Source: Candidatus Sungiibacteriota bacterium (GTDB lineage: Bacteria; Patescibacteriota; Minisyncoccia; Sungbacterales; HO2-52-23). Taken from it: DNA of 64,000 bases. Under the pieces are notes generated by a model that did not search any database, was not told the origin of the DNA, and saw only the letters and a list, made by a program, of their open reading frames with translations. Where the stretch lies: NCBI GenBank assembly GCA_016206285.1, contig JACQRW010000024.1:1376-65375 (forward strand), written 5' to 3'. Position 1 is the first letter of the stretch; each line of letters starts with the position of its first letter. The translations under genes and the position numbers were made by a program. Positions 9,271 through 29,395 of this stretch are shown here, one piece after another.

Positions 9271-9341
9271 AGCGGGTGAAGGGAATCGAACCCTCGTTCT
9301 TAGCTTGGGAAGCTAACGTACTGCCACTGTACTACACCCGC
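9271..9341 (-). tRNA. tRNA-Gly (anticodon CCC)
   Basis: Acceptor GCGGGUG/CACCCGC, D-arm GUAC-AGUGGCA-GUAC, anticodon stem UUAGC/GCUAA with loop UUCCCAA, T-loop UUCGAUU, 71 nt. Confidence 0.85.
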
Positions 9342-9383: not shown

Positions 9384-9647
9384 TCAGGTTATAAGTCTCA
9401 GACGGCGCAGATCATCTTCAGTCCAGCCGATTGCTTCGACAACACTGCGCAATGTTTGACGCGTGAGCGTGTCACTGCTGTGATGATAATGTATAACGGT
9501 AATCCTGCCATCCGGATGGCGATAAATGCGGCCGCCGGAGCGTGTTTCGCGTTCCAACAAAAACCCGTCACGCAACAGGGCATTGACGAGTTCGCGTACT
9601 GACGTATTGCGCAAAAGATGCGAGCACCGCGATACGTTATCATTCAT
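9384..9647 (-). CDS. hicA: HicA-family toxin (YcfA-like mRNA interferase)
   Basis: 87 aa with GF..ER.TRSGGRIYRHPDGRITVIHYHH....LTRQTLRSVVEAIG, matching the HicA core GSH..Y.HP.G...TVP.H...L..GTL.SIL. Overlaps the upstream hicB by an ATGA. Confidence 0.7.
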   Translation of the reverse strand: MNDNVSRCSHLLRNTSVRELVNALLRDGFLLERETRSGGRIYRHPDGRITVIHYHHSSDTLTRQTLRSVVEAIGWTEDDLRRLRLIT

Positions 9648-10057
9648 AGCGTAACCGCAATAACCGGCGCGTTAATGGTTTCAACCGTTTTCGCCATCGG
9701 AATGCTCTGCCCATATTTCACCAAAACCTCAAGGTATGCCTGCGCCGCTTCCCGCAATGCCCCCAGTGCCTCTCCTTGGTTGCGACCCAATGTCGCGCAT
9801 CCCGGCAATGTTGAAATCCATGCACTCCAACGCCCATCTTTTTCCTGTTCCAACTGGGCTCGAAAGACGTAGGACTTTACCTTGTGAATACTCATGGAAG
9901 TAGATCTTTTTACCTTTCTGGTCGCAACACTACTTGGCGCATCTCTTAAAATTCCAAAAGCCTCATCAGAAAACTCTTTTTTAGTTTTCTTGCTTCCAAC
10001 TTTTTTTGCTTCTAATAACTTTTGATATTCTTTTTTGCTGATAGTAACGGTTTCCAT
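9644..10057 (-). CDS. hicB: HicB-family antitoxin (UPF0150/RNase H-like fold with C-terminal extension)
   Basis: YVFRAQLEQEKDGRWSAWISTLPGCATLGRNQGEALGALREAAQAYLE matches the HicB core (…PGC.TQG.T.EEA…EA…LE); lies immediately upstream of hicA with a 4-nt overlap. Confidence 0.65.
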   Translation of the reverse strand: METVTISKKEYQKLLEAKKVGSKKTKKEFSDEAFGILRDAPSSVATRKVKRSTSMSIHKVKSYVFRAQLEQEKDGRWSAWISTLPGCATLGRNQGEALGALREAAQAYLEVLVKYGQSIPMAKTVETINAPVIAVTL

Positions 10058-10095: not shown

Positions 10096-11604
10096 TCACC
10101 GATACTTTGGCGTTACCCAAAATCCAAGGCGGTGTTTGCCGCCAAGCATGACGCGGGTCTGCGCCTCGAGCGCGGGAAATGCACCGAACACGATCATGGT
10201 GACCGGCATCAGTATCCATTGGAAGAAATATAAAATATAGTGGCGCTTGCGAAACCACTCAGGTTTGGGCGGCAACAGAATAATACCCAACACTGCCGAA
10301 GATACGATACCGACCATGGCAAAACTCATGATAAAGCGCGTAATACGCGGCAAGTTATAGGAAAGCACCGATACGTTGAATTCTGATCCTCCGATCGTTA
10401 CCGGCAACCAGCCAAGCACGAAAATAATGATCGAGTTGGTCGCCCATGAATGGAAACCCTCAATATAATGAAACCCGCGATAGAGCTTTTTTTTGAAAGG
10501 CATCTTTGGATGACGGCGAAATCCCTCAAGCATATAGGGCACGTTTTCACACCCGCCCCATGCCCAGCGGCGCTGCTGCTTGTAGAGATTTTTCATAGTT
10601 TGCCAAAATGTCAGCGCGACATTGGCATCCATGGACACGGGATACAAAATCGGCACTACGCGCCAATCGCCGTCGTAATGAAGAAAGCACTGCCAGAAAA
10701 TTTGTGAATCTTCCGACACAATGCCCGTATTCCAGAACCCGATCTCGACCAGTGCCTTGAAGGGCATCGCGTGCGATGAGAACGTAGCCATGCGCTCCGG
10801 ACGCGACTGCTGGATCATATGCCAAAACGATGAGGAAAACGCGATCACGCGTCCAAGCGCCGGAGCCTGATAGATGTTGTTTGTAAACAGCGGCACCGGC
10901 TGAAAACTCGACCGCTGCGGATACGGACAGGTAAGAAATTCGTAGGTCAGAATGCCAAAATATTCCGGAAATACCTGCGTATCAACATCCAAGACGGACA
11001 CCATGATCTGCTCATACGGAATTCCGAGCGGATCAATAATTTTTTCTTTCACTTGCCTGCCCGCCCATGTTTCGTTGGATCCCTTGCCCGGAATTTCATC
11101 CGGCAACTCTGCAGGATGCACCGTTGTGAGCAATTGGAAAAATTTGCCTTTGAACTCCCGTTCAATGCGCTGCGCTATTTCCTCCCCTTCCGGCGCGCGG
11201 CCTTCAGTGGCAAGCACTACGATCATGCGATCCGCAGGATAGTTGGCAGCAAGCAGCAATTTGAATGTCTCTGCCACCAGTTCATACGGCTCTTTGTACA
11301 TGGGAAATATCACCAGGTGATATATGTCCTGCCATGGTTTATTTTCTTTTTGGAGCCGCTCAAGCCAGTTTACTTTCATATTATGCCGCATCTGCTTGAA
11401 CGACGCACGCAAATGGAGTGAGAAATATAATGTTTTCAAAAACCAATAGGTATCAAAAACAATAATAAAGACGCTCGTCCATACTGGCAGGATATGCGAA
11501 AACACAATCGCCCCAATCAAAGTCCCCCACGCCAGCACCCCGGGCAGAAATTCAAAGAGACGGAATAAGTTTTTCTTTTCTGTATCGTATTGAGCGGTTT
11601 TCAT
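10096..11604 (-). CDS. Membrane-embedded family 2 glycosyltransferase (processive synthase-like, with DxD and QxxRW motifs)
   Basis: VLDVDT (DxD), KQQRRWAWG (QxxRW), multiple N- and C-terminal TM helices; 502 aa. Confidence 0.7.
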   Translation of the reverse strand: MKTAQYDTEKKNLFRLFEFLPGVLAWGTLIGAIVFSHILPVWTSVFIIVFDTYWFLKTLYFSLHLRASFKQMRHNMKVNWLERLQKENKPWQDIYHLVIFPMYKEPYELVAETFKLLLAANYPADRMIVVLATEGRAPEGEEIAQRIEREFKGKFFQLLTTVHPAELPDEIPGKGSNETWAGRQVKEKIIDPLGIPYEQIMVSVLDVDTQVFPEYFGILTYEFLTCPYPQRSSFQPVPLFTNNIYQAPALGRVIAFSSSFWHMIQQSRPERMATFSSHAMPFKALVEIGFWNTGIVSEDSQIFWQCFLHYDGDWRVVPILYPVSMDANVALTFWQTMKNLYKQQRRWAWGGCENVPYMLEGFRRHPKMPFKKKLYRGFHYIEGFHSWATNSIIIFVLGWLPVTIGGSEFNVSVLSYNLPRITRFIMSFAMVGIVSSAVLGIILLPPKPEWFRKRHYILYFFQWILMPVTMIVFGAFPALEAQTRVMLGGKHRLGFWVTPKYR

Positions 11605-11659: not shown

Positions 11660-13384
11660 CTATAGTATCTCCTTTTGATAACACTGTTTGCAATAGACGA
11701 TTGGCGCTTCCGCTTCGGTATAGTTGGTTTCAAAATCAGCGCCGCAGAGTTTGCAGACCCGCGAAATGAGCCGTAAATCCCTCACCCATTGGTTAAATTT
11801 CGCTTCAATCCTGCAAAACGGGCACTGCCGCGGAAGCGGAAAATTTCTCTCGCGCAAAAATTTGAATTCAGCCGGAATAATTTTAAATCCTCTTTCACAT
11901 ATACTGCATTGAAGTACTTCGTTCAAGATTGAATCATCCGCATCTTTAATATGATCGGGGATATCCGCCGTCTTCAGGGTAATATGATGCCGCCCTATTT
12001 TGGCTTCCTTGTATCGGTATCCGTTTTCTTCTATGTCTTCCTGCGCGAGCGGGAAAAAACCGTTTGCAATGGTCTCATTATATGCATAGGGCGACAATGC
12101 GACCGGGAAAAATTCTCCATAGCCGTATAGCCTCCCCCGTGTATCCTGATACGGCATTTCTTTCATATGTGCGATGATTTTTTCGCGCAGAGTAAAATAC
12201 TCTTCCTTTGTATACCGTTTATTCAGAATAACATACTCTCCTTTTCGCGCCGACACGCACCCGAAATAATTCGAGCCGCCTATTGAATCTACCGAGTACT
12301 CGGCGTTTACCGCGTTAATCCCGGTACTCAAACAAAACTTGAGTCCGGAACTATTCTCGCCCACATTGCAGCATTCATACGACAAGGCCAGATTGTTGCC
12401 CCAGCTGAATATATCATAGCAATCTTTTATCGGCGGGTCATACAGCATAAAAAGATACTTTGAATCCTCGGCGCCGTTTACCTCAAAGCACTGGGTACAA
12501 TTTCTGGATCGAAATACATGAGAACCCGTCGAATTGACGGAAAACTCCTCCTGAACCGGTTTTGGAGGAAGCGTCTTCCAGTGATCTTCCGCAAGCCGCT
12601 GTACCTCCTGATAGGTCTGGTACGAGCCAAGGTCCCACCGGGCAATTTCCTTGAAGTAATCATCTTTTGAATACGCTTTATTGAAGACATAATACTGTTT
12701 GTTGCGCAGATTAGCGGATGCAAAGCAATTCTGACAATTAAATGAATCTTTCAAGAATGCGCAATCAACCGAATCAGTCACCTGGCTTCTTAACCCTGCG
12801 CATCGGCTGTTTTTATACGAGTGCATCGAATCATAACATAAATCGGAAGAAACCATTGCAGACGAATCCAAGGTGTCTTTTACATGATTTAAAAAGAACC
12901 CGTATGCTGAATTTTCAACGAAATCCGCCATAAACAGCAGGTATGCATTCTTCAAATGCCCCGCAAGGTTGTTATAGAAGGAATTGACCATCGTAGAAGC
13001 ATCAATCCTCAACGCCGCCAAAGGCACCTCATGCAAAAGGCCGTTGAATTGTTCGAAAAACGGACGCGAGAAATCATAGTCGCGGCCATATGTCATGGGA
13101 TCCCATTGGTCCGACCACCAACATGAAGTGCAATAAACCCGATATCGCGCATCCGGAGGATACGTTGAAATAATATCTTTCTTGCAAAGATCGCAAAGCC
13201 GCTGATACAGATGAAAGATGTTGAAAAATGCCAGCCTCCGCTGCAATCTGCACTTCGGACAAAACGTGGGCGGCGGCACCTGCATCTTTTCATAAAACAC
13301 AAAATCCTCCGGCTCGATGGTGAAGGGATTTTTGCAATTTTGGCAGGGCTTGTCCTGAGCTTGTCGAAGGATTTCGGGGTTCAT
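11660..13384 (-). CDS. Cys-rich zinc-ribbon repeat protein, paralog A of a 10-copy tandem family (unnamed family). Start trimmed to MNPEILRQAQDKPCQNC, which overlaps the upstream stop as ATGA.
   Basis: N-terminal CQNCxxPF..PEDFxFYEK..VPxPTxCPxCR, internal CxxCFxC..LRNKQYYxFNKxYSKxxY repeats, C-terminal CxxC..FKIIPAEFKFLRERNFPLP..CPFCR and ...YCKQCYQKEIL. SD AGGAGG lies within the last codons of paralog B. Confidence 0.75.
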   Translation of the reverse strand: MNPEILRQAQDKPCQNCKNPFTIEPEDFVFYEKMQVPPPTFCPKCRLQRRLAFFNIFHLYQRLCDLCKKDIISTYPPDARYRVYCTSCWWSDQWDPMTYGRDYDFSRPFFEQFNGLLHEVPLAALRIDASTMVNSFYNNLAGHLKNAYLLFMADFVENSAYGFFLNHVKDTLDSSAMVSSDLCYDSMHSYKNSRCAGLRSQVTDSVDCAFLKDSFNCQNCFASANLRNKQYYVFNKAYSKDDYFKEIARWDLGSYQTYQEVQRLAEDHWKTLPPKPVQEEFSVNSTGSHVFRSRNCTQCFEVNGAEDSKYLFMLYDPPIKDCYDIFSWGNNLALSYECCNVGENSSGLKFCLSTGINAVNAEYSVDSIGGSNYFGCVSARKGEYVILNKRYTKEEYFTLREKIIAHMKEMPYQDTRGRLYGYGEFFPVALSPYAYNETIANGFFPLAQEDIEENGYRYKEAKIGRHHITLKTADIPDHIKDADDSILNEVLQCSICERGFKIIPAEFKFLRERNFPLPRQCPFCRIEAKFNQWVRDLRLISRVCKLCGADFETNYTEAEAPIVYCKQCYQKEIL

Positions 13385-15138
13385 AAAATTTCCTCCTGAT
13401 AACACTGTTCGCAATAGATAATTTCTTTTCGATCTGGCGCGTAAGAGGTCAGAAAGGCGTTTGCACATGCTGCGGTACCGTGGGGATGCGCGCCTTGATT
13501 TTGGTATGCGGCATTGTACGATTGTTGGCCGGCACATTGGCATGTTCGCTGATAAAATTTCGGCTGGTTGCGATATTTCGTGCGCTCAATAAATCGGCAG
13601 TTGTGGCAGATACGCGGAATCGGAAGCGTCATACGACGGTAAAACTCAAGCTCCATGGGAATCAGGCGAAACGCCTTGTTGCATGATGCACACTTAATAA
13701 CTTCTTTGAGAATATCATCGCCGATGTCGTTGATGTGATCGGGCAGGTTTTGCGCGTCCACCGTGGTTTTGAACTCGCGCGTCTCGGGCTCCCGCCAGAC
13801 GTACTTTTTTCGTATCGCTTCTTCTTTGGTCAGCGGGAAAAAGTCGTTTGCGAGCGTTTCGTTATACGCAAAAGGAGAAAACTCCGGCGGAAAGAACTCG
13901 CCGTAACGATACACCCTTCCCTGCTGGTCGGTAAACGGCATCTCATTCATGTGCCTGATAATTTTGTCGCGCAAAACAAAATACTCCTCTTGCGTATATT
14001 GCTTGTTAAAAATACAGTATGACTTTTTCCGCAACCCCACGCAGCCAAAGAGATTATTGGATGACATGCACTTAAACGAATATTCGATGCCGCGATCCGC
14101 CGGCCAGCAATCCATGGTAAACTTCAAGCTACTGCACCCGCTTCCGGAAACCAGCACCTCATACATAAGTTCGCTGTGCTCGCCCCAGATGGTGAAGTCA
14201 TACGAGTCATAAACCCCAAGTACCACTCCCTGAGAGTATTTTACATTTTCCGCATCAGCTACATTAAAACTCTCATGAACATTTTTACCGGAGGTAATCA
14301 TATCGCCGGATACGTTGACATTGTGCACGCCCGCCATAAATTTGCAGGGTAGAGACAGAGAAAACTGCCGCACCTGTTTTTTGATCTCCTCAAGCGACTG
14401 GTGCGATCCAAGGCCGAATTGATCGAGTTTCGCAAAATAATCCTCGCGGGAATACGGCCGGTTAAAAATATAGTATTGCTTGTTGCGCAGATTCGCGCAT
14501 CCGAAGCAGTTGGAACAGCCCATGCAATCACGTGAAAACCAGACATCATGGCATTTCTCGCAACGGTTGGAAAAACGCGTCTGATATGAATCAACGACAC
14601 TGGTGCACTCATAACAGAATTCATTGCGCGCAAGCGTGGTACAATCGAGAGAGTCTTTCATATTATTCGCATCACTTACGTACGCGCACCGCTCGCAGCT
14701 GCCAAGATTAAAACAGAGGTAACAATCTTTGAGGTTGCTTGCCCCATGCACATAGTCTGAATTGATCAGATTGATCACGCTCCGGCTCACCCATGGCACA
14801 TCGTACATGAGCGTTTTAAACTGTTCGAAAAACGGCCGGGAAAAGTCATACTCGCGGCCATAATCCATCGGATCCCATGCGTCTGACTGCCAATACTCAT
14901 CGTTATAAATTTTTGCCTGCACCTGCGGTGGAAACTCCGAAAAAATATCTTTGCCCGATATCTCGTCTTTATGCCGGAACAGCTGCCGCTCATTTTCAAA
15001 CAGCATTCTCCGAATCATCCGGCACTCCGGACACCACGTCGGCGCAGGCACCTTGATCTTCTCGTAAAATGCAAAATCCTCCGGTTTAATAGTGAACGGC
15101 TGGCTGCAGTTTTGACAGGTGCGGGTTTCTTGATTCAT
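13381..15138 (-). CDS. Cys-rich zinc-ribbon repeat protein, paralog B
   Basis: 585 aa starting MNQETRTCQNCSQPFTIKPEDFAFYEKIKVPAPTWCPECR and ending ...YCEQCYQEEIL. About 65% identical to paralog I at the N-terminus; start ATG overlaps the hicA stop (ATGA). Confidence 0.8.
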   Translation of the reverse strand: MNQETRTCQNCSQPFTIKPEDFAFYEKIKVPAPTWCPECRMIRRMLFENERQLFRHKDEISGKDIFSEFPPQVQAKIYNDEYWQSDAWDPMDYGREYDFSRPFFEQFKTLMYDVPWVSRSVINLINSDYVHGASNLKDCYLCFNLGSCERCAYVSDANNMKDSLDCTTLARNEFCYECTSVVDSYQTRFSNRCEKCHDVWFSRDCMGCSNCFGCANLRNKQYYIFNRPYSREDYFAKLDQFGLGSHQSLEEIKKQVRQFSLSLPCKFMAGVHNVNVSGDMITSGKNVHESFNVADAENVKYSQGVVLGVYDSYDFTIWGEHSELMYEVLVSGSGCSSLKFTMDCWPADRGIEYSFKCMSSNNLFGCVGLRKKSYCIFNKQYTQEEYFVLRDKIIRHMNEMPFTDQQGRVYRYGEFFPPEFSPFAYNETLANDFFPLTKEEAIRKKYVWREPETREFKTTVDAQNLPDHINDIGDDILKEVIKCASCNKAFRLIPMELEFYRRMTLPIPRICHNCRFIERTKYRNQPKFYQRTCQCAGQQSYNAAYQNQGAHPHGTAACANAFLTSYAPDRKEIIYCEQCYQEEIL

Positions 15139-15356
15139 ATATTTTCAAAGTCTTCTTCGCGCAAATGCGATTGTCTCACGATTGACCGAAATGTGCCATA
15201 CGGAATTTCCCTTTTGTTCATCGGAACGATAACCGTATGTATCCCAGCCACAACTTTCCGGCGATACTTCGCGTGGCTTCCGCGCTGGGAGACAAAAACA
15301 AAGCCCCTGAATTCAAGGACTTTGACAATATACTGCGAAGAATACAATTTAGGCAT
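15135..15356 (-). CDS. hicA: HicA-family toxin embedded in the paralog array
   Basis: 73 aa with IVKVLEFRGFVFVSQRGSHAKYRRKVVAGIHTVIVPMNKREIPYGTFRSIVRQSHL, a textbook HicA signature. 8-nt overlap with the upstream hicB; ATGA overlap with paralog B. Confidence 0.75.
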   Translation of the reverse strand: MPKLYSSQYIVKVLEFRGFVFVSQRGSHAKYRRKVVAGIHTVIVPMNKREIPYGTFRSIVRQSHLREEDFENI

Positions 15357-15570
15357 ATTGGAACGCCTTTTTCACGATGGAGGGAGAGCGTATCTCCTGA
15401 ATTTTCCGCGGCACATCTTCGAGATACAGTTCAAATGCTTCCTGAAGATTTTTGATTGCTTCTGATTTGGTCTTGCCGAAACTTGAGACATCGGCGTTCA
15501 GACATTGAGCCACATAATACTTGCCCTCTTTCCATACAATAGAGATAATATTGATCTTTTTCATACGCAT
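15349..15570 (-). CDS. hicB: HicB-family antitoxin (short form, 73 aa). Start trimmed to MRMKKINI; the longer ORF 15349..15921 on the track runs antisense-frame through paralog C and is not credible.
   Basis: ISIVWKEGKYYVAQCLNADVSSFGKTKSEAIKNLQEAFELYLE matches the HicB/UPF0150 core; lies directly upstream of hicA. Confidence 0.7.
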   Translation of the reverse strand: MRMKKINIISIVWKEGKYYVAQCLNADVSSFGKTKSEAIKNLQEAFELYLEDVPRKIQEIRSPSIVKKAFQYA

Positions 15571-15595
15571 ATAATAGCACGTTACGGAAATTTGT

Positions 15596-17374
15596 TCAAA
15601 CGACCTCGCTTTGATAACATTGCTCGCAATAGACGATTTCGGGTCTGTCGGGAGCATAAGAGGTCTGGAACTCGTTGGAGCAGGGAGCATCACCGTGCGC
15701 GTGTCCGGTCTGATTCTGGTATACTCCGTTTGCAGACGATTTACCAGCGCACTGGCAGAAACGATGCCAGAGTTCAAATGGATTACGGAAAGCCAGACGG
15801 GCGGCATTGCGGCACAGGAAACATCGCCTCGGAATCGGGAGCGACATTTTACGGTAAAACGCAAGTTCCTGCGGGATAATACGGTAATTTCTCGAACATG
15901 CCCCGCAGACCAGAATTTCATTCGTGATCGAATCGGAAATGTTCCGAATACTGTCCGGCAGATCGGATAATGCGATGGTTTCTTTCCCCGTAGTTAGCTG
16001 CAAAGAATCGCGCCATTGAAAATCTTTGGCATGCGCATCTTCCTCCGCAAGGGGATGATACATCTGGGCCACGGTCTCGTTGTATCCGAAACGCGAGAGA
16101 CGGGCCGGAAAAAATTCTCCCCACTCTCCGGTTGTTTTCATGTGCTCGATAATCCTGTTCTTGAGCTTTTCGTACTCTTCTTTTGAATACTGCTTGTTGA
16201 AAATACAGTACTCGCCCTTCTTCAGACCGACGCAGCCAAACAGATATTTGGAAGAATGACAGCTGTCGCAATACGTCACTTCCATGTTCTTCCACGAGTA
16301 GAACGAAAAAAAATTGCGGTACGACTGGTCCGGCGTAAGCGCTTCGTAGCACTGGTTAATCTCTCCGGCAACAAGAATATCATAGCTATCCTTGGAAGCT
16401 TCGCCATTCTCGAAGTACTTGGAGTCCTCCGCATTGAACGCATTAAAAACATAGTGACAATTTTTTGAATTGATAAGATCGTCCCCGATCGAGGCAACGC
16501 AATTTTTTAGGTTTGCATATCGACGAGGATACTTCATAATAAACTCACCGAATTCTTTTTTCGCCCGTTCTCTGCCGTTGTGCGTATCAAGACGATACTC
16601 CGCGATGATCCGTTTATACTCTTCTTCCGAGTATTGCTTATTTTTTACGTAGAAGCGCTTATGACGCAACCCGATAGATAGAAAACAATCCGACGAGTCG
16701 CGGCAGTCATAACAGAAATGCATATCTTTGACGCTGAACGAGTAGTATATATTTGTGGAACGATAACACTGCTGTGTACAGATGCTTTCATAGCTAAGCT
16801 CACAATCACCAAAGCTGCTCATTGCGTCAACAACTTCTTTTGCTTTGATCACTTCATGGCCGTATAAGCTATCTTCGAGTTTCCATGCCAACAAGACCAT
16901 ATAGCAATTTCTGCCAAACGAGAAATCATGCGTATATTGACAATTCACGCTTCCAATGCCGTCATCATTAATAAGCGCGAGCGCCGGCACGCGGTTTTGC
17001 AGTTCAACAAATTGTTCGAAAAACGGACGGGAAAAATTAAAGTCAGCCGCGTAATCTTTCGCATCCCACTGGTCCGACCACCAGCACTTATTACAATAGA
17101 CGGGAAACCTTTTGTCCGGAGCGTACAGCGACACGATCTGCTTTTTGCAAAGATCGCATGTCCGCGAGTAAAAATTAAAATCATTGCGCCACGCCATCCG
17201 CCGTTGTCTGCGGCATTTGGGGCAAAATGTCGGCGCAGGCACCTTGATCTTCTCGTAAAACGCAAAATCCTCCGGCTCAATGGTGAACGGTTTGCTGCAA
17301 TTCTGGCAGGGCTTGTCCTGCCCTCGACTCGAGCTCGGGCCGAGAGTAGCTTGTCGAAGGATTTCGAGGTTCAT
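15596..17374 (-). CDS. Cys-rich zinc-ribbon repeat protein, paralog C. Start MNLEILRQA..., with a 9-aa insertion TLGPSSSRG relative to paralog A.
   Basis: Same domain layout as the other paralogs, ending ...YCEQCYQSEVV. ATGA overlap with the paralog D stop at 17371-17374. Confidence 0.8.
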   Translation of the reverse strand: MNLEILRQATLGPSSSRGQDKPCQNCSKPFTIEPEDFAFYEKIKVPAPTFCPKCRRQRRMAWRNDFNFYSRTCDLCKKQIVSLYAPDKRFPVYCNKCWWSDQWDAKDYAADFNFSRPFFEQFVELQNRVPALALINDDGIGSVNCQYTHDFSFGRNCYMVLLAWKLEDSLYGHEVIKAKEVVDAMSSFGDCELSYESICTQQCYRSTNIYYSFSVKDMHFCYDCRDSSDCFLSIGLRHKRFYVKNKQYSEEEYKRIIAEYRLDTHNGRERAKKEFGEFIMKYPRRYANLKNCVASIGDDLINSKNCHYVFNAFNAEDSKYFENGEASKDSYDILVAGEINQCYEALTPDQSYRNFFSFYSWKNMEVTYCDSCHSSKYLFGCVGLKKGEYCIFNKQYSKEEYEKLKNRIIEHMKTTGEWGEFFPARLSRFGYNETVAQMYHPLAEEDAHAKDFQWRDSLQLTTGKETIALSDLPDSIRNISDSITNEILVCGACSRNYRIIPQELAFYRKMSLPIPRRCFLCRNAARLAFRNPFELWHRFCQCAGKSSANGVYQNQTGHAHGDAPCSNEFQTSYAPDRPEIVYCEQCYQSEVV

Positions 17375-19164
17375 ACTATTTCTGTTTGATAACACGTCTC
17401 GCAATAGACGATTTCGGGTCTGTCGGGAGCATAGGAGGTCTGGAAGTTGTTTGGGCAGCGCTCTCCCATATGATGCGCATGCTCCGATGAATTCTTATAG
17501 ACTTGATTATCACACGCGCACTGTCGTTGCCATTTTTTCAACACCGGGCTTCTTTGCAGCGTCCGTTCACGATGACGGCAATAAAAACATTTGCGCGGTA
17601 ACGACAATTTCATATTTCGATAAAACTCCAGTTCCGATGCAGTGATGCGAAATGCCTTTGTGCAGTTATGCTGCTGCGCTTCCTTCTGATTATTGTCCCA
17701 ATTCTCGCAAAGAATCGTTTCTTTCAATAGAGAGTCAGGCACATCATTGATATGATCAGGAAGCCCCTGCCAGGACATCGTAGTGAGATAATCTTTCACC
17801 GCAGGATCCCGCCACAAAAATCCTCTTTTCACAGCTTCAACTTGGCTGAGCGGCATATACTCCTGGACCACGGATTCATTGTACGCATAGGGACAAAGCT
17901 CGGCCGGAATGAATTCTCCATATGCATACTCTCGCCCCCTCGCATCGCGATACGGCATGGCATTCATATGCTCTTTTATCTTTATAAGAAGCTTTTCATA
18001 CTCTTCTTTGCTATATTGTTTGTTCAAAATACAATATGATTTGTTTCGCAGACCAACGCATCCAAACAGATTGTTTACCGATGGCGAGCATGAAAACGAA
18101 TATTCGACATCATAACTGTCAATATACACAAGCACTGAAAACTTGATGTTTGAAGCGTTATATCCGACATTATTGCACTCATAGATTTTTTCCGCATTCC
18201 ATCCGAAGAGATCGTAATCATAGCAATTTTTGGGCCCGAAAGGAAGTTTAATAAAGGAGCAAAACCGACTATCCTCTCCGTCCGCCACCATATATGAATC
18301 AAGGACATTCCTGCTATGATACACATAGTCTCCGGAAACATTTTGATTGTGCGACCCGTGCATGAAGCGCACCGGAAACATCTGGAAAGCTTCGCGTGCT
18401 TTCTTTTTAACTTCGAGGAGACTTTGGTGCGATCCAAGATCAAATTCAGCAATTTTCTTGGAATACTCTTCCGGAGAATACTGCATATTGAAGATGCAAT
18501 GCGACTTATTTCGCAACCCGACGCAGCCGAAACAATCGGTACAATTTATGCAATCTTTGCAAAATACGACATTATTGCAGTCCTCGCAGTTGCTCGAATA
18601 CAACACCCCGTAGCATTTTACGCAGTCAAAACATTCGTAACAAAGTTCGCAAAAATCAACGGACAAAATATCGAAACAGTTTCTCGCTTGGTTGAGAGCA
18701 ACGCCGTAAGACGAATTTTCTGTGAAGTCCGCATCGAAAAGCATGTAGCATTCTTTCAAGTTGCTGCAGTTCATGCAGTATTCGCTCCTCACATTATTGA
18801 GAAAAGACCGGCTCGGCCACGGGACGGTTTGTATGAGTTCTTTCAGCTGTTCGAAAAAAGGCCGTGAAAAATCGTACTCGTTGCCGTATTGCATGGGATC
18901 CCATTGATCCGACCACCAGTAATCACGGTCATATACCTTGACCGGGGCGTTGGGAGAAAACATGGAAAAGATATCTTTTCCGGTCGCATCGCATTTCCGC
19001 TTATAAAAAATGTTCTCGTTTCGCCAGATCATCCTGCGCTGAAACCTGCACTCCGGACACCACGTCGGCGGCGGCACTTTGATCTTCTCATAAAACTCAA
19101 AGTCCTCCGGTTTGATGGTGAACGGCTTTTTGCAATTCTGACACTGTTTGATTTCTTGGTTCAT
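17371..19164 (-). CDS. Cys-rich zinc-ribbon repeat protein, paralog D (start trimmed to MNQEIKQCQNC)
   Basis: The ORF track extends to 19317, but the conserved N-terminus begins at the ATG at 19164, 8 nt after the paralog E stop. Ends ...YCETCYQTEIV. Confidence 0.75.
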   Translation of the reverse strand: MNQEIKQCQNCKKPFTIKPEDFEFYEKIKVPPPTWCPECRFQRRMIWRNENIFYKRKCDATGKDIFSMFSPNAPVKVYDRDYWWSDQWDPMQYGNEYDFSRPFFEQLKELIQTVPWPSRSFLNNVRSEYCMNCSNLKECYMLFDADFTENSSYGVALNQARNCFDILSVDFCELCYECFDCVKCYGVLYSSNCEDCNNVVFCKDCINCTDCFGCVGLRNKSHCIFNMQYSPEEYSKKIAEFDLGSHQSLLEVKKKAREAFQMFPVRFMHGSHNQNVSGDYVYHSRNVLDSYMVADGEDSRFCSFIKLPFGPKNCYDYDLFGWNAEKIYECNNVGYNASNIKFSVLVYIDSYDVEYSFSCSPSVNNLFGCVGLRNKSYCILNKQYSKEEYEKLLIKIKEHMNAMPYRDARGREYAYGEFIPAELCPYAYNESVVQEYMPLSQVEAVKRGFLWRDPAVKDYLTTMSWQGLPDHINDVPDSLLKETILCENWDNNQKEAQQHNCTKAFRITASELEFYRNMKLSLPRKCFYCRHRERTLQRSPVLKKWQRQCACDNQVYKNSSEHAHHMGERCPNNFQTSYAPDRPEIVYCETCYQTEIV

Positions 19165-19172
19165 ACGAAGAT

Positions 19173-20921
19173 TCACGCGACTTTGGCATGATAGCACTGC
19201 TCGCAATAAATGTTTTTCTCTCCCAGTGCCGGATCGTACATGGTAGGCACGATTTTTCCGCATTTCGCGCAGGCAACCTCCCAGAATTGCAGCCGCATAT
19301 CCATGTCTTTGCGCCACTGGGCCATACGGACAAACGGATGCACGCGCGGAAGCGGCAGATTGTATTTTCGATAAAATGCAAGTTCAAAAGGCACGATGCG
19401 AAATTTCCTGTTATGCTCCACGTCAAGAATGACTTTTTGCAAAATGGAGTCATCCACATCTTTAATATCAAGCGAAAGTTCGCTTGAGCGAAGCACTGAC
19501 AAAGAGGTCTCTCCTGACGCATCCTCCGGGATGTTTTCAACCCAATAGCCGTCGCGCTTTGCTTTCTCTAAATCCTCAAATCCGGGATAGGCCGTGATCA
19601 AAGAGGTGTTATACGGAAATGGCGCTAACGCAGGCGGGAAAAACTCTCCATACTCTCCCCTCTCAAGCATGGCTTTCTTGAGCAGATCAACAACCCGCCA
19701 GTATTCCTCCGGCGCATACTGTTTATTGAATATACAAAATGATTTGTTGCGCAAGCCTACGCAGCCAAACAAATCGTGACAATTATAGCACGAATCGCAG
19801 TATTCCAGGTCGCGGGAATTATGGACGTTGTTTGAAAATTTGATGCCATAATTGTTTTCCGCGGATACGGAAATAAATTCATAACATAATTCAAAGTTTG
19901 CCCCGCCAAGGATATCATACGAATCGCGCGCGCCCAGAAATCCCAGAGAGTAGCACACGCGTTCAGACTCGAACGCGAAAAGTACGAAGTAGCAGTCTTT
20001 GACATTGAACATCCATGTCCCGACCGAATTCACCCACTGCTCTCCGTGGATATTTTTTTTGATCGCGTTTTTCTTCAGCTCTTGAAAATCTTTGAGATAC
20101 TTTTGCAGTTCTTCGTAATTTCCCAGATTGACTTCGCGTAATTTCTTTTCATATTCCTCGCGAGAAAGCTGCTGGTTGTAGAAACAATATTTTTTGTTGC
20201 GCAGATTCGAGCACATAAAGCAATGCTCGCAGTTTTTGCAGTCAAAGAGAAAATAACTCTCGATGCTGTTTTCCGTCCAATAACAGAAAAAACATTTGAA
20301 CATCGTGGTCCCATGCGAACCGTAGCATGAATCGGCGGAAATACACGCCCAGCAGTCCATACAGTTTTTATTTTTCATGCAGCATTCGACATAGTAAAGA
20401 TCTTCTCCGTACAGCATGTCAAACGCAACATAGCAATTTTTCAGATGCGTGGAGCTGTTGGTATATTCAGAGTTTACGTTTGAAGAATCATTATTCAGAT
20501 TCGGGCGCGGAACCTCGCGCTGCAGCAGCCGAAACTGGCCAAAAAACGGCTGTCCAGAATCCGGCGCTTTCCCGTATGAGAGCGGATCCCACTGGTCCGA
20601 AAACCATATGCCGTGCTCATAGATTTTAAAAGGGGCAGTACGGGGATAGACCGATATGATTTCTTTGCCCGTATGCGCCGATTTCACTTTGAAAAATTGA
20701 TACCCGGGTGCAAAGGTAAGTTTTTTTCTCCAGCGCTCCAGCGGCGAGAGCGTAGGCAGCGGCACGCGTATTTTCCGGTAGAATTCGACATCTTCGGGCC
20801 GGATGTAAAACTTTTCTCCGGAAACCCGGCATGTCCGCCACTGCCCGCCTTGCTCGTCCAATTCCAAACCGGCAAAGTATCGCTCAATCGCTTGGTCGAA
20901 TTGGGGCGTTTTTGCATTCAT
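19173..20921 (-). CDS. Divergent member of the Cys-rich paralog family (paralog E). The terminal zinc-ribbon cysteines are largely replaced, while the central Cys-rich repeats are retained.
   Basis: N-terminus RTCRVSGEKFYIRPEDVEFYRKIRVPLPTLSPLERWRKK against the consensus CQNCxxPFTIxPEDFAFYEKIxVPxPTxCPxCRxxRR. C-terminus HNRKFRIVPFELAFYRKYNLPLPRVHPFVRM against CxxCxxAFRIIPxELxFYRKMxLPxPxxCxxCR. Ends ...YCEQCYHAKVA. Confidence 0.75.
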   Translation of the reverse strand: MNAKTPQFDQAIERYFAGLELDEQGGQWRTCRVSGEKFYIRPEDVEFYRKIRVPLPTLSPLERWRKKLTFAPGYQFFKVKSAHTGKEIISVYPRTAPFKIYEHGIWFSDQWDPLSYGKAPDSGQPFFGQFRLLQREVPRPNLNNDSSNVNSEYTNSSTHLKNCYVAFDMLYGEDLYYVECCMKNKNCMDCWACISADSCYGSHGTTMFKCFFCYWTENSIESYFLFDCKNCEHCFMCSNLRNKKYCFYNQQLSREEYEKKLREVNLGNYEELQKYLKDFQELKKNAIKKNIHGEQWVNSVGTWMFNVKDCYFVLFAFESERVCYSLGFLGARDSYDILGGANFELCYEFISVSAENNYGIKFSNNVHNSRDLEYCDSCYNCHDLFGCVGLRNKSFCIFNKQYAPEEYWRVVDLLKKAMLERGEYGEFFPPALAPFPYNTSLITAYPGFEDLEKAKRDGYWVENIPEDASGETSLSVLRSSELSLDIKDVDDSILQKVILDVEHNRKFRIVPFELAFYRKYNLPLPRVHPFVRMAQWRKDMDMRLQFWEVACAKCGKIVPTMYDPALGEKNIYCEQCYHAKVA

Positions 20922-20930
20922 AGGTTACTT

Positions 20931-22625
20931 TCAATCAAGTTCTTTTTGATAGCATTTCGCACATAAAATCTTCTGGCCCGCAAGCGAGGACGGATACTCG
21001 ACGGAAGCCCCGCATTGTTCACACACCCCATGCACACTCTTCAATTCCGCCATCCAGAGGTTTAATTTTTCCTTGATCCGGCACAGAGGACACCGGCGCG
21101 GCAGCGGCAGCGAGCGCCGTTTCAAAAAATCCAGCTCCCGGGGAATAATCCGAAAGCCGCGTCGGCATTCGGCACAGCGTATAATCTCTTTCAAAATCCG
21201 CTCGCCTGCATCTTTGATATGATCCGGCAACTCGGAGGCGTCGCGATCAATATGGTGTTCGGTTTTTTCTTCTTTTGTCCATACAAAACCTTGCGTACGC
21301 GCCTCATCTTCAGTACGCGGAAACATATTGTGTGCAAGAGATTCATTGTAGCCGTGGGGACTGAATTCCGGGGGAAAAAATTCACCGTAGAAGTATTTTC
21401 GTCCGACACGGTCCTCAAAGGGAACGCGGCGCATCTCGTCCTTGATTTTCCCGACAAGCGAATGATATTCCTCTTTCGAATATTGCTTGTTCAAAATGCA
21501 GTAGTGCTGGCTGCGAAGCGAGACACACCCAAAGGTATTGGAAGATCCCACGCCGCTTAATACCGTGTACTCCATGTCATACGCTCCCTCAAAACAGAGA
21601 TTACCAAAACGGATGTTTGCCGCGTTGCGCCCGACCAATCCCTCGTAGCAAGACTGGGCTTCTCCCCAAGTGGATATATCGTATGAATCTTTCACATCGC
21701 GCACCATGAAAAGATACCGGGAATCTTCTCCCCGCGTCACCTCATAACAATCTTTGCAATTTTTGGATTGGTGAACGTAATTTCCCGTGCAGTTCACCGA
21801 GAATTCGTCAAACCGGACTTTAGGCGGGTACTGCTGCCAATGAGATTCCGCCGCCTTTTTCGCCTCCATGTATATGCGATACGAGCCAAAATCCCATTTT
21901 TTCATCTCCTCAGCATACTTTTCCTTGGAATAAGGCTTATTGAAAATATGATATTGCTTGTTTCGCAAATTTGCAGAAGCAAAACAATCCGTGCAATGAT
22001 GACAATCCCGCAAAAACGAACAATACGCGGACTCATACACCTGATTGCGCAATCCCGTACCGTAACTCACCTTATAGATGTGCGCGGAGTCATAGCAGGT
22101 ATCACACTGCTGTATGAGCGAACAATCATAGGTGCTCTTTGAGCGAAACACATACACGCCATACGCGCAATCTTCCACTTCGTCGGTCTGCGAGAGAAGA
22201 TATGAGTCCTTCACTTTTCCGGCGTAATTATTGTAGGGCGAGTTCTGCGCGGTATCAAGATCAACCGCCAGACCTATGAGCGGAACGCTTTTCCATAACT
22301 CGCGAAACTGCTCGAAAAACGGCTTGGAAAAGTCATAGTCCCGGCCATAATCCCTCGCGTCCCACTTGTCGGACCACCAGCACTGCGGACAATACACCAC
22401 AAACGGAGCATCAGGATGGTAGTTGGTGATAAACGGCTGCTTACAAAGACCGCATATCCGGTGATAGAGGTGGATCAAATTCAAAAACGAAAGCCGCCGC
22501 TGCAGCCGACATTGGGGACACCACGTCGGCGCAGGCACCTGCATCTTCTCGTAAAACGCAAAATCCTCCGGCTCGATGGTAAAGGGATTTTTGCAATTCT
22601 GGCAGGTTTTGGTTTCTTTATTCAT
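20931..22625 (-). CDS. Cys-rich zinc-ribbon repeat protein, paralog F (same subfamily as A; start trimmed to MNKETKTCQNC)
   Basis: N-terminus matches paralog A through FLNLIHLYHRICGLC...YCPQCWWSDKWD. ATGA overlap with the paralog G stop at 22622-22625. Confidence 0.8.
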   Translation of the reverse strand: MNKETKTCQNCKNPFTIEPEDFAFYEKMQVPAPTWCPQCRLQRRLSFLNLIHLYHRICGLCKQPFITNYHPDAPFVVYCPQCWWSDKWDARDYGRDYDFSKPFFEQFRELWKSVPLIGLAVDLDTAQNSPYNNYAGKVKDSYLLSQTDEVEDCAYGVYVFRSKSTYDCSLIQQCDTCYDSAHIYKVSYGTGLRNQVYESAYCSFLRDCHHCTDCFASANLRNKQYHIFNKPYSKEKYAEEMKKWDFGSYRIYMEAKKAAESHWQQYPPKVRFDEFSVNCTGNYVHQSKNCKDCYEVTRGEDSRYLFMVRDVKDSYDISTWGEAQSCYEGLVGRNAANIRFGNLCFEGAYDMEYTVLSGVGSSNTFGCVSLRSQHYCILNKQYSKEEYHSLVGKIKDEMRRVPFEDRVGRKYFYGEFFPPEFSPHGYNESLAHNMFPRTEDEARTQGFVWTKEEKTEHHIDRDASELPDHIKDAGERILKEIIRCAECRRGFRIIPRELDFLKRRSLPLPRRCPLCRIKEKLNLWMAELKSVHGVCEQCGASVEYPSSLAGQKILCAKCYQKELD

Positions 22626-24367
22626 GCCATTTCTGCCTGGTAACACTCCTCGCAATAGATGATTTCTTTTCTTTCAGGAGCGTAACTTGTCTCAAATTCA
22701 TTTGGACATTGATTCAAACCATGAACATGGGAGCTTGCGTTAGCGTATATCCCATTGGCGCTCTTCTGCCCGGAGCAATGGCAATGTACTCGCCAGAGCT
22801 TGCGGGGATTGCGCATTGCCATGCGATCTTGTCTGCGACATGCAGGACACTTTGCAGGTATCGGCATGTTCATTTTCCGATAGAATGCCAGCTCCTCCGG
22901 CAGAATACGAAAAGCAGTAGTACAATGAAGATTTTTTTCTTTCGCGCCAGGGTCATCTTGCGAAACGCACCCGATGACTTTTTCAAGAATGCTTTCATTA
23001 GTATCTCCAATCGTTTCCGGAATGTCTTCCGGACGCAGAGTAATGCCATACCCGCGTTCAGGCCGCTCGTACCACCGCATCCCCTTTGACAGAACATCAG
23101 TTTTTGTAAGCGGAAAATAATCCTGTGCTACTGTTTCGTTGTATGCAAACAACGTACGGGTTGCGGGGAAAAATTCTCCCCACTCTTTGGTCTCTTTCAT
23201 GTGTGCGATGATTTTTTCAAGAAGTGCTGCATATTCCTCTTTGGTATACTGTTTGTTGAAGATACAGTACTCGGCTTTTTTCAGTCCAACACAGCCGAAA
23301 AGATCATGGCTGTTGGTACAGAGTTCGGAATAAAACGAGTTAAGCACCTGAACACTCTTAGTTACTCCGATAGAACTTTGCGCCGTGACGCCTTCATTTT
23401 CATATCCAAGCTCAACCCATGCCTCCGTGCAGTCAATGCTGTCTTTTGAATAATTGGTGTCCTGGCAATAGCGCAGATTCTCCGCCTCACTGGCGTGGAA
23501 AACCGCAAAGGAGTTTTTGATGTCATGGATGTAATCTCCTACGGAATGAAGTGTGTTTCTGCCGTGATAACTTTTATGCGGGTATCTCATCGCAAGCTCC
23601 ACGAGCAATATCTTCTCTTTTTGTATATTCGCGCGGCTGAATACAAATTCAGAAAGCCGCTTCTCGTATTCTTCGCGCGTCAGCTGCTCGTTTTTCCAGC
23701 AATATGATTTGTTCCGTAATCCATAGCATCCGAAACACGATGTGCATCCTCTGCAATCCTTCAAAAAATAACTTGTGGTCGTGTCGGCGCAGTCTTCAAG
23801 ATACGCGGAACGACTGCAATTGATACTATTAAGGGATTCGTACAGTAGTTCGCTTTGGAGGATGTCATAGCAGTCAACGGATTCGCGTGTTTTATCCAAC
23901 CAGTATCCGTAGAGGCAGTTTTCGGAATATGCCGTTGAGACGCACATGTAGCAGTTTTTGTTACTCACCGATTGATTTGTATATTCGGAATTGGTGCTAT
24001 GCCAATTTGCCATTGCAATATGCGGAACTTTCAGGCGAAATGCATGGAATTGTTCAAAGAACGGCTGCGAAAAATCAAAATCGCGGGCGTATGCATACGG
24101 ATCCCACCCATCCCCCCACCAGCACGAGTGGCAATATACCGGTCCCGGATATTCAGAATTATACAGAGAGACGGTATCCTTGGCGCACAGATCGCATTTC
24201 CGGCGGTAAAAATTCCATTCATTCCGGTTCGTAAGCCGCCGCTGATACCGGCACTCCGGACAAAACGTGGGCGGCGGCACTTTGATCTTCTCATAAAACG
24301 CAAAGTCCTCCGGTTCAATAGTAAAGCCAGTTTGGCAGTTTTGGCATTGTTTTTGTTCTGTCGGCAT
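22622..24367 (-). CDS. Cys-rich zinc-ribbon repeat protein, paralog G. Start chosen at MPTEQKQCQNC by alignment with the other paralogs; an alternative start 24 nt upstream at 24391 (MSWSQYYT...) is possible.
   Basis: Same architecture, ending ...YCEECYQAEMA. First gene of the G-F-E-D-C sub-operon, after the divergent intergenic region 24392-24535. Confidence 0.7.
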   Translation of the reverse strand: MPTEQKQCQNCQTGFTIEPEDFAFYEKIKVPPPTFCPECRYQRRLTNRNEWNFYRRKCDLCAKDTVSLYNSEYPGPVYCHSCWWGDGWDPYAYARDFDFSQPFFEQFHAFRLKVPHIAMANWHSTNSEYTNQSVSNKNCYMCVSTAYSENCLYGYWLDKTRESVDCYDILQSELLYESLNSINCSRSAYLEDCADTTTSYFLKDCRGCTSCFGCYGLRNKSYCWKNEQLTREEYEKRLSEFVFSRANIQKEKILLVELAMRYPHKSYHGRNTLHSVGDYIHDIKNSFAVFHASEAENLRYCQDTNYSKDSIDCTEAWVELGYENEGVTAQSSIGVTKSVQVLNSFYSELCTNSHDLFGCVGLKKAEYCIFNKQYTKEEYAALLEKIIAHMKETKEWGEFFPATRTLFAYNETVAQDYFPLTKTDVLSKGMRWYERPERGYGITLRPEDIPETIGDTNESILEKVIGCVSQDDPGAKEKNLHCTTAFRILPEELAFYRKMNMPIPAKCPACRRQDRMAMRNPRKLWRVHCHCSGQKSANGIYANASSHVHGLNQCPNEFETSYAPERKEIIYCEECYQAEMA

Positions 24368-24535
24368 AGTATAGTATTGCGACCATGACACCCTCTCACC
24401 GCATGATACCTGTTAATTTTCGCAAACTCAAGGATTAAAAATACTTATAAGAGCTGTGGACAATCATGCTTTACATTGCGCAGTACATGGAGTATACTGA
24501 AACTTAGATTATACGAATAACTTAATCATAAGAAT

Positions 24536-25369
24536 ATGAAAAAAACATTATCTTTTATTGCTGGTTTTTCGATCCTTGCACAACTCGCTCCAATTGCAGT
24601 TTTGGCGCAAACTCCGGGCGAAACAAGACCGGAACGGCGGCAGCAAATGCAGGAAAAACGCCGGGAAAATAGGCAAGAAGTGCAGGGGGAAAAAGCGGAG
24701 CTTCGCGAAGAAACCAAGCTAAAGCGCGAAACACTCAAAACCGATATCAGACAGAAAGCGGAAACATTGCGCCAGCAAATCCAGGAAAGAGCAAAAACCT
24801 TCCGGGAAGCAACCACAACCGTGGAGCAAAAAAAGGCATTCCGCGCTGAAATAAAGGAGAAACGGCAAACGTTTAAAACCGAGGTCAAAGAAAAACGCGA
24901 AGAGTTCCGGCAAGAAACAAAAAAACGCAGGGAAGAATTCAAAAAACATGTTGGCGAGAAGCGAGCGGAAAACATAGAACGGTTTTTTGACCAGATGGTC
25001 AAAAAAGTTGAATCGGCCATTGACCGGCTGAATCAGTCCGCCGATAAAATTGAGGCGCGAATCGACCAAGCAGAAGACAATGGGAAAAATGTAAGCGCGA
25101 TTCGTACGGAACTTGAGGCAGCTCGCGTGAAAATCGCCGATGCCGAAACCGCACTTGCCACTGCCAAAGCAAAATATGCCGAAACGGCTTCAAGCCAAGA
25201 CCCCAAAACCGCATTCGCGAATGTGCGTGCGGCAATGAAAATCGTTTCTGACAAAGTGAAGAACGCGCATCAAGCACTGGTAGCAGTTATCAGTTCACTG
25301 AAAGGAGTCGCCGGCAAAACTACTTCTGCTCCTCCGGCGCCAGCGCCTACGTCGACACCAAGCCAATAA
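24536..25369 (+). CDS. Secreted, highly charged coiled-coil repeat protein (K/R/E-rich), function unknown
   Basis: Signal peptide MKKTLSFIAGFSILAQLAPIAVLAQT, followed by ~200 aa of repetitive RxxxxKxE heptad-like sequence and a Pro/Ala/Thr-rich C-terminal tail. Confidence 0.6.
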   Translation: MKKTLSFIAGFSILAQLAPIAVLAQTPGETRPERRQQMQEKRRENRQEVQGEKAELREETKLKRETLKTDIRQKAETLRQQIQERAKTFREATTTVEQKKAFRAEIKEKRQTFKTEVKEKREEFRQETKKRREEFKKHVGEKRAENIERFFDQMVKKVESAIDRLNQSADKIEARIDQAEDNGKNVSAIRTELEAARVKIADAETALATAKAKYAETASSQDPKTAFANVRAAMKIVSDKVKNAHQALVAVISSLKGVAGKTTSAPPAPAPTSTPSQ

Positions 25370-25393
25370 AAGTAACTATAATTCAACATATTT

Positions 25394-25672
25394 ATGAATG
25401 AAACCATGCAATCAAATCAATCGCAGTTGCCCCCGGAGAAAAAAACAACATCGCGACTTTTGACTATCGTTGTGCTTGGCGCGGTGATCGTACTTGCCAT
25501 TGTCGTTTATCTCTTTTCTTCGGGCTCTTCGACTCCTTTGCCTTCGGAAGAAACAACGGCAGTCCCGGCCCCGACAGAAGAAGCAGATGCGCTTGCACAA
25601 GAGGTGCAAAGTATGAATCTGGAAGGTCTTGATGCCGAACTTGGTGATATTGAAAAAGAACTCGCACAGTAG
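25394..25672 (+). CDS. Small single-pass membrane protein, hypothetical
   Basis: 92 aa with one TM helix (LLTIVVLGAVIVLAIVVYLF) and an acidic C-terminal tail; followed by a terminator. Confidence 0.45.
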   Translation: MNETMQSNQSQLPPEKKTTSRLLTIVVLGAVIVLAIVVYLFSSGSSTPLPSEETTAVPAPTEEADALAQEVQSMNLEGLDAELGDIEKELAQ

Positions 25673-25690
25673 CATCTTCCAAAACATCAA

Positions 25691-25724
25691 AATACCGCGC
25701 CCTCTTACGGGGCGCGGTATTTTT
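25691..25724. terminator. Bidirectional rho-independent terminator between the convergent genes at 25394-25672 (+) and paralog H (-)
   Basis: ATACCGCGCCC-tcttac-GGGCGCGGTAT followed by TTTTTG on the plus strand and by a T-rich run on the minus strand. Confidence 0.65.
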
Positions 25725-25728
25725 GTCT

Positions 25729-29353: not shown

Positions 29354-29395
29354 AAGGGGCCCGAACGGTTAACTACCTAAGGCCCCCTTTTCTTT
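29354..29395 (-). terminator. Intrinsic terminator of the NYN-domain gene; the stop codon and last six codons lie inside the hairpin
   Basis: Plus strand GGGGCC-(19 nt loop)-GGCCCC followed by CTTTTCTTTT. On the minus strand the stem is followed by UUUU. Separates the NYN gene from the paralog array. Confidence 0.5.

Follow-up and report, generated by a model that had tools for sequence, protein, structure and literature searches.

We analyzed an array of uncharacterized genes in a 64,000-nucleotide (nt) stretch of DNA from a Candidatus Sungiibacteriota bacterium (contig JACQRW010000024.1 of assembly GCA_016206285.1, positions 1,376 to 65,375; hereafter the window). The array consists of nine tandem paralogs on the minus strand (11660-29273), each of 564-597 amino acids (aa). 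They are labeled A to I by increasing coordinate and are transcribed in the direction from I to A. We found that a short block near the 5' end of these genes is more alike at synonymous positions than the rest of the genes. The excess is specific to this genome, the genealogy of the block is incongruent with that of the gene bodies, and discrete tracts of near-identity link particular copies. The explanation that we consider the probable one is strong purifying selection on a predicted zinc finger, combined with old, sporadic, short-tract gene conversion confined to the segment that is still similar between copies.

The conserved block encodes a predicted zinc finger

A 111-nt block is common to eight of the nine paralogs, all but E. 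It starts 7-26 codons past the ATG and encodes CQNCxxPFTIEPEDFAFYEKIKVPPPTFCPECRxQRR. A 24-mer from the recurring sequence occurs six times at ≤3 mismatches, compared with zero occurrences expected. A preliminary description, made from the sequence alone, had listed the places at which this sequence recurs, with a weaker form in E. Mapping the 48-nt core of the block in each copy confirmed them (Table 1). The same description had counted ten copies; tblastn found none beyond the nine. In E, three of the four N-terminal, predicted zinc-binding cysteines are lost and the block is about 50% identical to that of the other copies. The eight canonical copies all contain CCGGAGGA and have G-ending codons through the core.

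Sequence comparison and structural modeling predict that the block encodes an N-terminal treble-clef-like zinc finger (CxxC...CPxC). The cysteines C8, C11, C36, and C39 are near invariant among 50 homologs, and the 37 residues of the block are the most conserved segment of the whole family (0.74). The closest Pfam match for residues 1-44 is zf_Tbcl (PF13451; E=4e-4), and a few homologs carry this annotation. In an AlphaFold2 model of copy I, based on a 50-sequence alignment (predicted local distance difference test score (pLDDT) 84, predicted template modeling score 0.84), the N-terminal module (residues 1-45) is a β-hairpin with helices at a pLDDT of ~90. The middle of the model is β-rich and solenoid-like, and the C-terminus holds further Cys-rich modules. 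The block encodes CxxC-x24-CPxC, with a predicted β-hairpin knuckle and the second cysteine pair at a helix N-terminus, and in this it resembles the probable treble-clef zinc fingers of PF13451 (zf_Tbcl) and PF23477 (zf_Tbcl_2). The window protein differs from zf_Tbcl in its score, 20.6 bits against a curated cut-off of 24, and in the remainder of its ~590 residues (a β-solenoid-like middle and two further Cys clusters), for the bulk of which Pfam and NCBIfam have no family. No relative with a solved structure was found by sequence search or by Foldseek.

Synonymous positions in the block are more alike than expected

Among the eight canonical copies, identity is 72-84% over the 111-nt block and 81-98% over the core, and the almost identical recurrence described earlier was not borne out. 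Numerous synonymous positions in the block vary freely, including TGC/TGT, CAA/CAG, AAT/AAC, GAT/GAC, TAT/TAC, ATC/ATT, and CCn. When the peptides were back-translated with the genes' own codon usage, identity reached 77% in the core and 72% in the block, compared with the 87% and 78% observed. Most of the DNA conservation is therefore protein conservation, which forces DNA similarity, as two-codon amino acids make up most of the motif.

Beyond this, an excess at synonymous positions was clear. At positions where two copies have the same residue, they use the same codon with a frequency of 0.61 in the block (0.64 without E), compared with an expected 0.44 and with 0.45 in the rest of the gene. 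By alignment column, synonymous likeness is higher in the block than elsewhere (Mann-Whitney p=6e-6). The NG86 proportion of synonymous differences drops from 0.83 in the body of the gene to 0.60 in the block and 0.41 in the core, and a control block that is likewise conserved in protein stands at 0.82. Synonymous divergence in the block thus does not equal that of the rest of the gene. The excess tapers gradually downstream, as far as about alignment column 130. Shuffling codons among same-residue cells within the block gives 0.53, compared with the observed 0.64 (p<0.0005). Copy E has no synonymous excess in its diverged block, as would be the case if exchange were identity-dependent. Of the earlier claim that the block is conserved at the DNA level including its synonymous positions, the synonymous excess is real, while the conservation itself is mostly forced by the protein and leaves many synonymous sites variable.

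The codon pattern is specific to the genome

To separate a pattern of this genome from one of the whole family, we sampled 80 genes from 29 loci matched for GC content at third codon positions (GC3). Codon choice at the block positions was near background across this sample. Sets of eight consensus-like genes from eight GC3-matched genomes shared codons at a frequency of 0.46±0.026, with a maximum of 0.56 in 3000 draws, compared with 0.64 in the window (z=6.4). Family-wide codon bias cannot account for the synonymous excess of the window, and the excess is genome-specific. In 90% of loci, third-position G is enriched in the block relative to the body, and the block sites of the family as a whole avoid ATT and GTA. 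GC-biased conversion was considered as a cause of the third-position G enrichment but was not supported: there is no enrichment of C-ending codons, and the codons fixed at Phe and Cys sites end in T.

The block is homogenized to a comparable degree in several other arrays (L143, z=6.3; L012, z=4.8; L022, L019, L072, L066, and L060) and not in L006, L059, L104, and L156. Each homogenized array uses a codon "dialect" of its own. The window encodes K26 by AAG, F23 by TTT, and P18 by CCG; L124 and L099 use AAA for K26, L143 and L099 use TTC for F23, and L124 uses CCC for P18. The codon for T33 varies from array to array among ACG, ACC, and ACA. GGAGGA, which resembles a Shine-Dalgarno sequence, becomes CGAGGA in L124 and GGAAGA in L099. 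Since the dialects differ between arrays, this sequence is not a conserved feature. A universal functional codon pattern was rejected on the same observations, as other arrays fix other codons and do not keep GGAGGA. Within the block, the codon for one amino acid also differs by site, with Cys encoded by TGC at columns 10 and 38 and by TGT at column 35.

Copy B has a single-copy ortholog in L002 that is 84% identical. This ortholog has GAA AAA where the canonical window copies have GAG AAG, except for A (GAA AAG). Between B and the ortholog, there is no significant block-specific synonymous conservation (0.69 vs 0.61).

Block and gene bodies have different genealogies

Gene bodies of the paralogs are 30-57% identical at the protein level, lower than the 40-65% previously given. 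In the gene body, the window copies have closer relatives in other genomes than in their own. For example, the body of H has an identity of 0.61 to a gene of L025 compared with 0.44 to its best paralog, and that of B has an identity of 0.83 to the L002 gene. In the block, the copies resemble their genomic neighbors as much as, or more than, their relatives in other genomes. When pairs were matched on body identity, the nucleotide identity of the block was 0.75-0.82 in the window and 0.65-0.68 between genomes, a difference of ~0.10; the control block had no such excess. In a metagenome scan for closer relatives with the same array, identity did not exceed 61%. An ortholog of I in L161, 77% identical, lies in a different gene neighborhood.

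Similarity in the block is uncorrelated with similarity in the body (Mantel r=0.05, p=0.38). By their cores the copies form the groups {B,C,F} and {D,G,H,I}, while by their bodies B pairs with I and A with F. The body of B is closest to that of I (57% aa identity), whereas its core is 96% identical to that of C and 83% to that of I; the bodies of B and C are 39% identical. The cores of D and G are also 96% identical. I and H, with bodies 41% identical, have cores that are 98% (47/48) identical, including a 40-nt run without mismatch. The synonymous variant CCT and the GCG next to it occur in perfect linkage in B, C, and F.

Two tracts of near-identity were found outside the block. The 3' ends of C and D match at 47/48 nt with sharp edges; 18/21 synonymous codons in this tract are the same, and identity just upstream is at random level. 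These 3' ends are a second, pair-specific case of probable exchange. At the opposite end of the gene, A and C have in common a 5' extension (MNxEILRQA...QDKP) in which 18/18 and 17/17 nt are identical and 13/13 synonymous codons are the same, while their bodies are just 33-34% identical. The extension was not found in the other window copies or in their nearest relatives elsewhere. The GENECONV-like permutation that we used ignores heterogeneity of site rates, so that its p-values are optimistic inside the conserved block. For this reason, our inference of exchange leans on the incongruent genealogies and the tracts outside the block. The preliminary description had raised, as one possibility, that the copies exchange sequence by gene conversion or recombination, and this is supported by the genome-specific homogeneity, the incongruent genealogy, and the sharp-edged tracts.

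The 5' extension of A and C is also an imperfect inverted repeat of the block core, with 24 nt that are 75% complementary in A (13288-13311 with 13365-13388) and 17 nt that are 76% complementary in C (17258-17274 with 17355-17371). In the predicted mRNA folds of A and C, the extension pairs with CCGGAGGAUUUU just past the start codon. The extension may have originated by template switching, and the predicted pairing could affect the translation of A and C. The 27-nt insert of copy C at 17318-17349 on the minus strand is itself palindromic (CTCGGCCCGAGCTCGAG...) and encodes TLGPSSSRG.

Explanations for the homogenized block

Under the explanation that we favor, protein constraint on the zinc finger would keep the DNA of the block alike, and most of the similarity would come from that. 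The block is the sole segment that retains runs of 20-40 identical bases and would thus be the sole place for homologous recombination to start. Each exchange would restore identity, and the segment would stay able to recombine. Short-tract gene conversion between tandem copies of one genome would in this way partly homogenize the block, by exchanges that are old and sporadic, and a separate RNA or DNA element would be unnecessary. This mechanism and its self-reinforcing loop are drawn from general knowledge of identity-dependent homologous recombination. The residual synonymous divergence (dS) of the block is ~0.6-1.2, and exchange would therefore be old, incomplete, and sporadic rather than programmed.

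Several observations weigh against selection plus conversion. In the 20-codon core, shuffling codons among same-residue cells gives 0.72, compared with the observed 0.75 (p=0.05). As this shuffle nearly reproduces the observed value, regional codon preference contributes, and part of the core signal could come from codons favored in this region and not from common descent. The family also has a modest site bias of its own, in which CCG in the PPP motif, GAG after CCG, ACG, and CGG are favored, and the cross-genome excess is ~0.04-0.055 (0.48 vs 0.425 expected). Genes of the nearest genomes (L002, L003, L001, and both L161 copies) agree with the window codon pattern at 0.58-0.65, almost the level of agreement among the window copies themselves, which fits a slowly drifting shared consensus or clade-level selection. 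In no pair of copies does identity extend across the entire block; perfect runs reach 40 nt at most, and none of the exchanges was therefore recent. Some apparent mosaicism could reflect repeated independent change, given the recurrent P/A and F/W polymorphisms. Each gene offers ~30 informative codons, and single comparisons are low-powered.

Protein constraint and codon preference (through translational accuracy or polyproline decoding) might suffice alone, with no exchange between copies, and this we regard as unlikely. From protein sequence and codon usage, the core is already predicted to be 77% identical and the block 72%, and the core excess nearly vanishes under the within-block shuffle. 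The family-wide preference for CCG, GAG, ACG, and CGG, the avoidance of ATT and GTA, the enrichment of third-position G in 90% of loci, and the lack of a significant block excess between B and its L002 ortholog point the same way. However, cross-genome sets average 0.46 and never exceed 0.56, compared with 0.64 in the window, and the codons fixed in the window differ in GC3-matched arrays. Constraint alone also does not predict that Cys is fixed to different codons at different sites, or that another equally protein-conserved block has no excess. It leaves the C-D and A-C tracts and the incongruent genealogy unexplained.

It is distinctly improbable, in our judgment, that the block is a nucleotide-level element under selection within the coding sequence, such as a site targeted by a small RNA or antisense RNA specific to the genome, a Shine-Dalgarno-like sequence within the gene that acts as a pause site (CCGGAGGA), a structure at the 5' end of the mRNA, or a site for DNA binding. 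An RNA-level element of this kind had been proposed as an alternative to conversion. The retention of CCGGAGGA and of the G-ending core codons in all eight canonical copies, the persistence of much of the pattern in the closest related genomes, and the ability of the extra 5' segment of A and C to pair with the block core would all suit such an element. Against it, no Rfam match was obtained at E≤1 in positions 9000-32000. The consensus fold of eight 5' ends by RNAalifold is -6.6 kcal/mol with no compensatory pairs, and the sole recurrent predicted hairpin is broken in H and I. Single-sequence folds of the nine copies scatter about zero relative to shuffles (z from -1.84 to +1.70), and neither strand has a recurring site at the block that resembles a promoter or a terminator. 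The 5' ends thus have no stable or covarying structure. Other arrays fix different codons, GGAGGA is replaced in L124 and L099, the nearest ortholog of B has GAA AAA in place of GAG AAG, and tracts outside the block, such as the C-D 3' ends, would be left unexplained. The look-alike antisense open reading frames (ORFs) reported before run to 76-192 codons in the nine copies, and in every copy they use the frame that is codon-for-codon complementary to the sense gene. This frame is open wherever the sense strand lacks TTA, CTA, and TCA codons, and the antisense ORFs are therefore a by-product; from the nine window copies, a real antisense gene was rejected as a frame artifact.

A programmed cassette or diversity system, in which the block and the conserved 3' end would act as recombination sites that shuffle variable bodies as in antigenic-variation loci, is in our view scarcely credible. 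It would account for tandem diverged paralogs with conserved ends, for the recurrence of 5-10-copy arrays in many Parcubacteria, and for the exchanged gene ends. However, all nine genes are full length, lie on the same strand, and have their own start codons, four junctions have ATGA overlaps that suggest translational coupling, and there are no silent donor copies among the nine, none of which bears out the "cassette-like system" suggested at first. Among the ORFs scanned, those of the gaps and of the array flanks, none had a recombinase-like domain; the gaps are occupied by a HicA/HicB-like pair and a coiled-coil ORF. The gene bodies are not being shuffled, as stable orthologs of them exist in other genomes, and a block dS of 0.6-1.2 means that exchange is rare. 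Surface variation is unlikely, given that each protein starts with a predicted zinc finger and that neither the alignment nor the model reveals an N-terminal signal sequence, with no predictor run. Very improbable, too, is a block maintained as a "handle" for recombination or regulation, alike in the canonical copies of an array and differing in version per genome. Such a handle would be recognized by a trans-acting RNA or protein, encoded in the genome, through which the whole paralog set is co-regulated, or would license the exchange of gene ends and so produce new chimeric paralogs in reduced genomes of the candidate phyla radiation (CPR).

Relation to known systems

Segmental concerted evolution by gene conversion is known in bacterial multigene families, such as tufA/tufB and the rRNA operons. 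The window resembles these in that, over a limited segment, the paralogs of one genome are closer to each other than to their orthologs, and in its short, sharp-edged tracts, discordant segment genealogy, and identity-dependent exchange. It differs in that the segment is tiny (~50-110 nt) in genes that are synonymously saturated and 30-57% identical at the protein level, and in that homogenization is partial and old rather than near-perfect. Antigenic-variation cassette loci, such as pilE/pilS and vlsE, exchange segments through conserved flanking blocks. Here too, arrays of diverged copies have short conserved blocks able to guide recombination. In contrast to those loci, the array lacks silent donors and a single expression site. 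Its copies are all complete and, it appears, co-transcribed; the proteins seem to be cytoplasmic, and exchanges are rare. The homogenization of the block is an ordinary, known kind of gene-family evolution and not a new RNA element or cassette system.

The array provides a quantified case in which conversion is limited to one short segment that protein constraint keeps recombinable in otherwise saturated paralogs. The setting is a CPR/Parcubacteria genome, where recombination between paralogs is little documented; our literature search returned nothing relevant on this protein family or on gene conversion in CPR bacteria. The case is also a warning for genome scans, as nucleotide conservation in a strongly conserved motif of low-degeneracy amino acids, with antisense look-alike ORFs, does not count as evidence for an RNA element. 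A larger puzzle is the uncharacterized family itself, with coupled arrays of up to ten diverged copies, predicted zinc fingers at both ends of the protein, and no solved relative.

Array layout, gene neighborhood, and protein family

The ATGA overlaps are 4 nt long and occur at the I/H, G/F, D/C, and B/A junctions. The array is broken in two places. A toxin-antitoxin pair occupies 15135-15564 on the minus strand, between C and B, and consists of a HicA toxin preceded by a small HicB-like ORF. Between H and G lies a 1.3-kb gap (24368-25728) with a plus-strand ORF of 277 aa that has at most a weak coiled-coil-type match. A strong terminator-like hairpin in this gap, directly after H, divides the array into at least an I-H unit and a G-to-C unit. 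The coordinates of all features are given in Table 1.

Table 1 Paralogs, conserved blocks, exchange tracts, and neighboring features of the array, with positions in the window.
Feature	Position	Strand	Remarks
Paralog A	11660-13384	-	574 aa; ATG at 13384 overlaps stop of B (ATGA)
Paralog B	13381-15138	-	585 aa
Paralog C	15596-17374	-	592 aa; ATG overlaps stop of D
Paralog D	17371-19164	-	597 aa
Paralog E	19173-20921	-	582 aa; divergent copy
Paralog F	20931-22625	-	564 aa; ATG overlaps stop of G
Paralog G	22622-24367	-	581 aa
Paralog H	25729-27510	-	593 aa; ATG overlaps stop of I
Paralog I	27507-29273	-	588 aa
Conserved block of A	13235-13345	-	core 13265-13312
Conserved block of B	15007-15117	-	core 15037-15084; CCT-GCG "VPAPT" haplotype, as in C and F
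Conserved block of C	17198-17308	-	core 17228-17275
Conserved block of D	19033-19143	-	core 19063-19110
Degenerate block of E	20721-20831	-	weak core form 20751-20798
Conserved block of F	22494-22604	-	core 22524-22571
Conserved block of G	24236-24346	-	core 24266-24313
Conserved block of H	27379-27489	-	core 27409-27456
Conserved block of I	29142-29252	-	core 29172-29219
5' extension of A	13341-13384	-	MNPEILRQAQDKPC; near base-for-base match to C, no other copy
5' extension of C	17304-17374	-	sequence of A plus 27-nt palindromic insert
3'-end tract of C	15623-15670	-	47/48 nt identical to D tract; sharp edges
3'-end tract of D	17398-17445	-	partner of C tract
HicA toxin	15135-15356	-	PF07927, E=7e-12; stop overlaps ATG of B
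Small HicB-like/DUF7387 ORF	15349-15564	-	weak matches; precedes HicA
Terminator-like hairpin	15299-15324		within HicA/HicB-like insert
Terminator-like hairpin, strong, bidirectional	25689-25723		14-15 bp; T runs on both strands; directly after stop of H
tRNA	9271-9341	-	context gene
HicB-like antitoxin ORF	9644-10057	-	context gene
Family-2 glycosyltransferase	10096-11604	-	downstream of array
NYN-domain protein	29373-29909	-	upstream of array
GatB-like ORF	29920-31407	-	upstream of array; assigned by eye from sequence alone

The protein family is very large, with at least 7980 relatives at E≤0.001 among 8000 scored candidates. Among the 120 matches listed, every given name was "hypothetical" or "uncharacterized". 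Copy I is identical to NCBI protein HY617_03860 from a Candidatus Sungbacteria metagenome-assembled genome. Arrays of 5-10 paralogs of the family recur in many Parcubacteria/Patescibacteria genomes, and tandem arrays of 7-10 diverged paralogs (L012, L143, L150, L156, L006, and others) were observed in Parcubacteria genomes of widely differing GC content.

The N-terminal motif (F.I.PED..FY.K..VP.PT.CP.CR) recurs near the C-terminus of the protein as FRIIP.EL.FYRK..LPLPR.C..CR; in copy I, the two lie at residues 1-45 and 483-523. This C-terminal repeat is without a synonymous excess. A further segment, CFGC.NLRNK.Y.IFN..YS.EEY, is present twice in the paralog protein. On the basis of these repeats, the protein was built from internal duplications.

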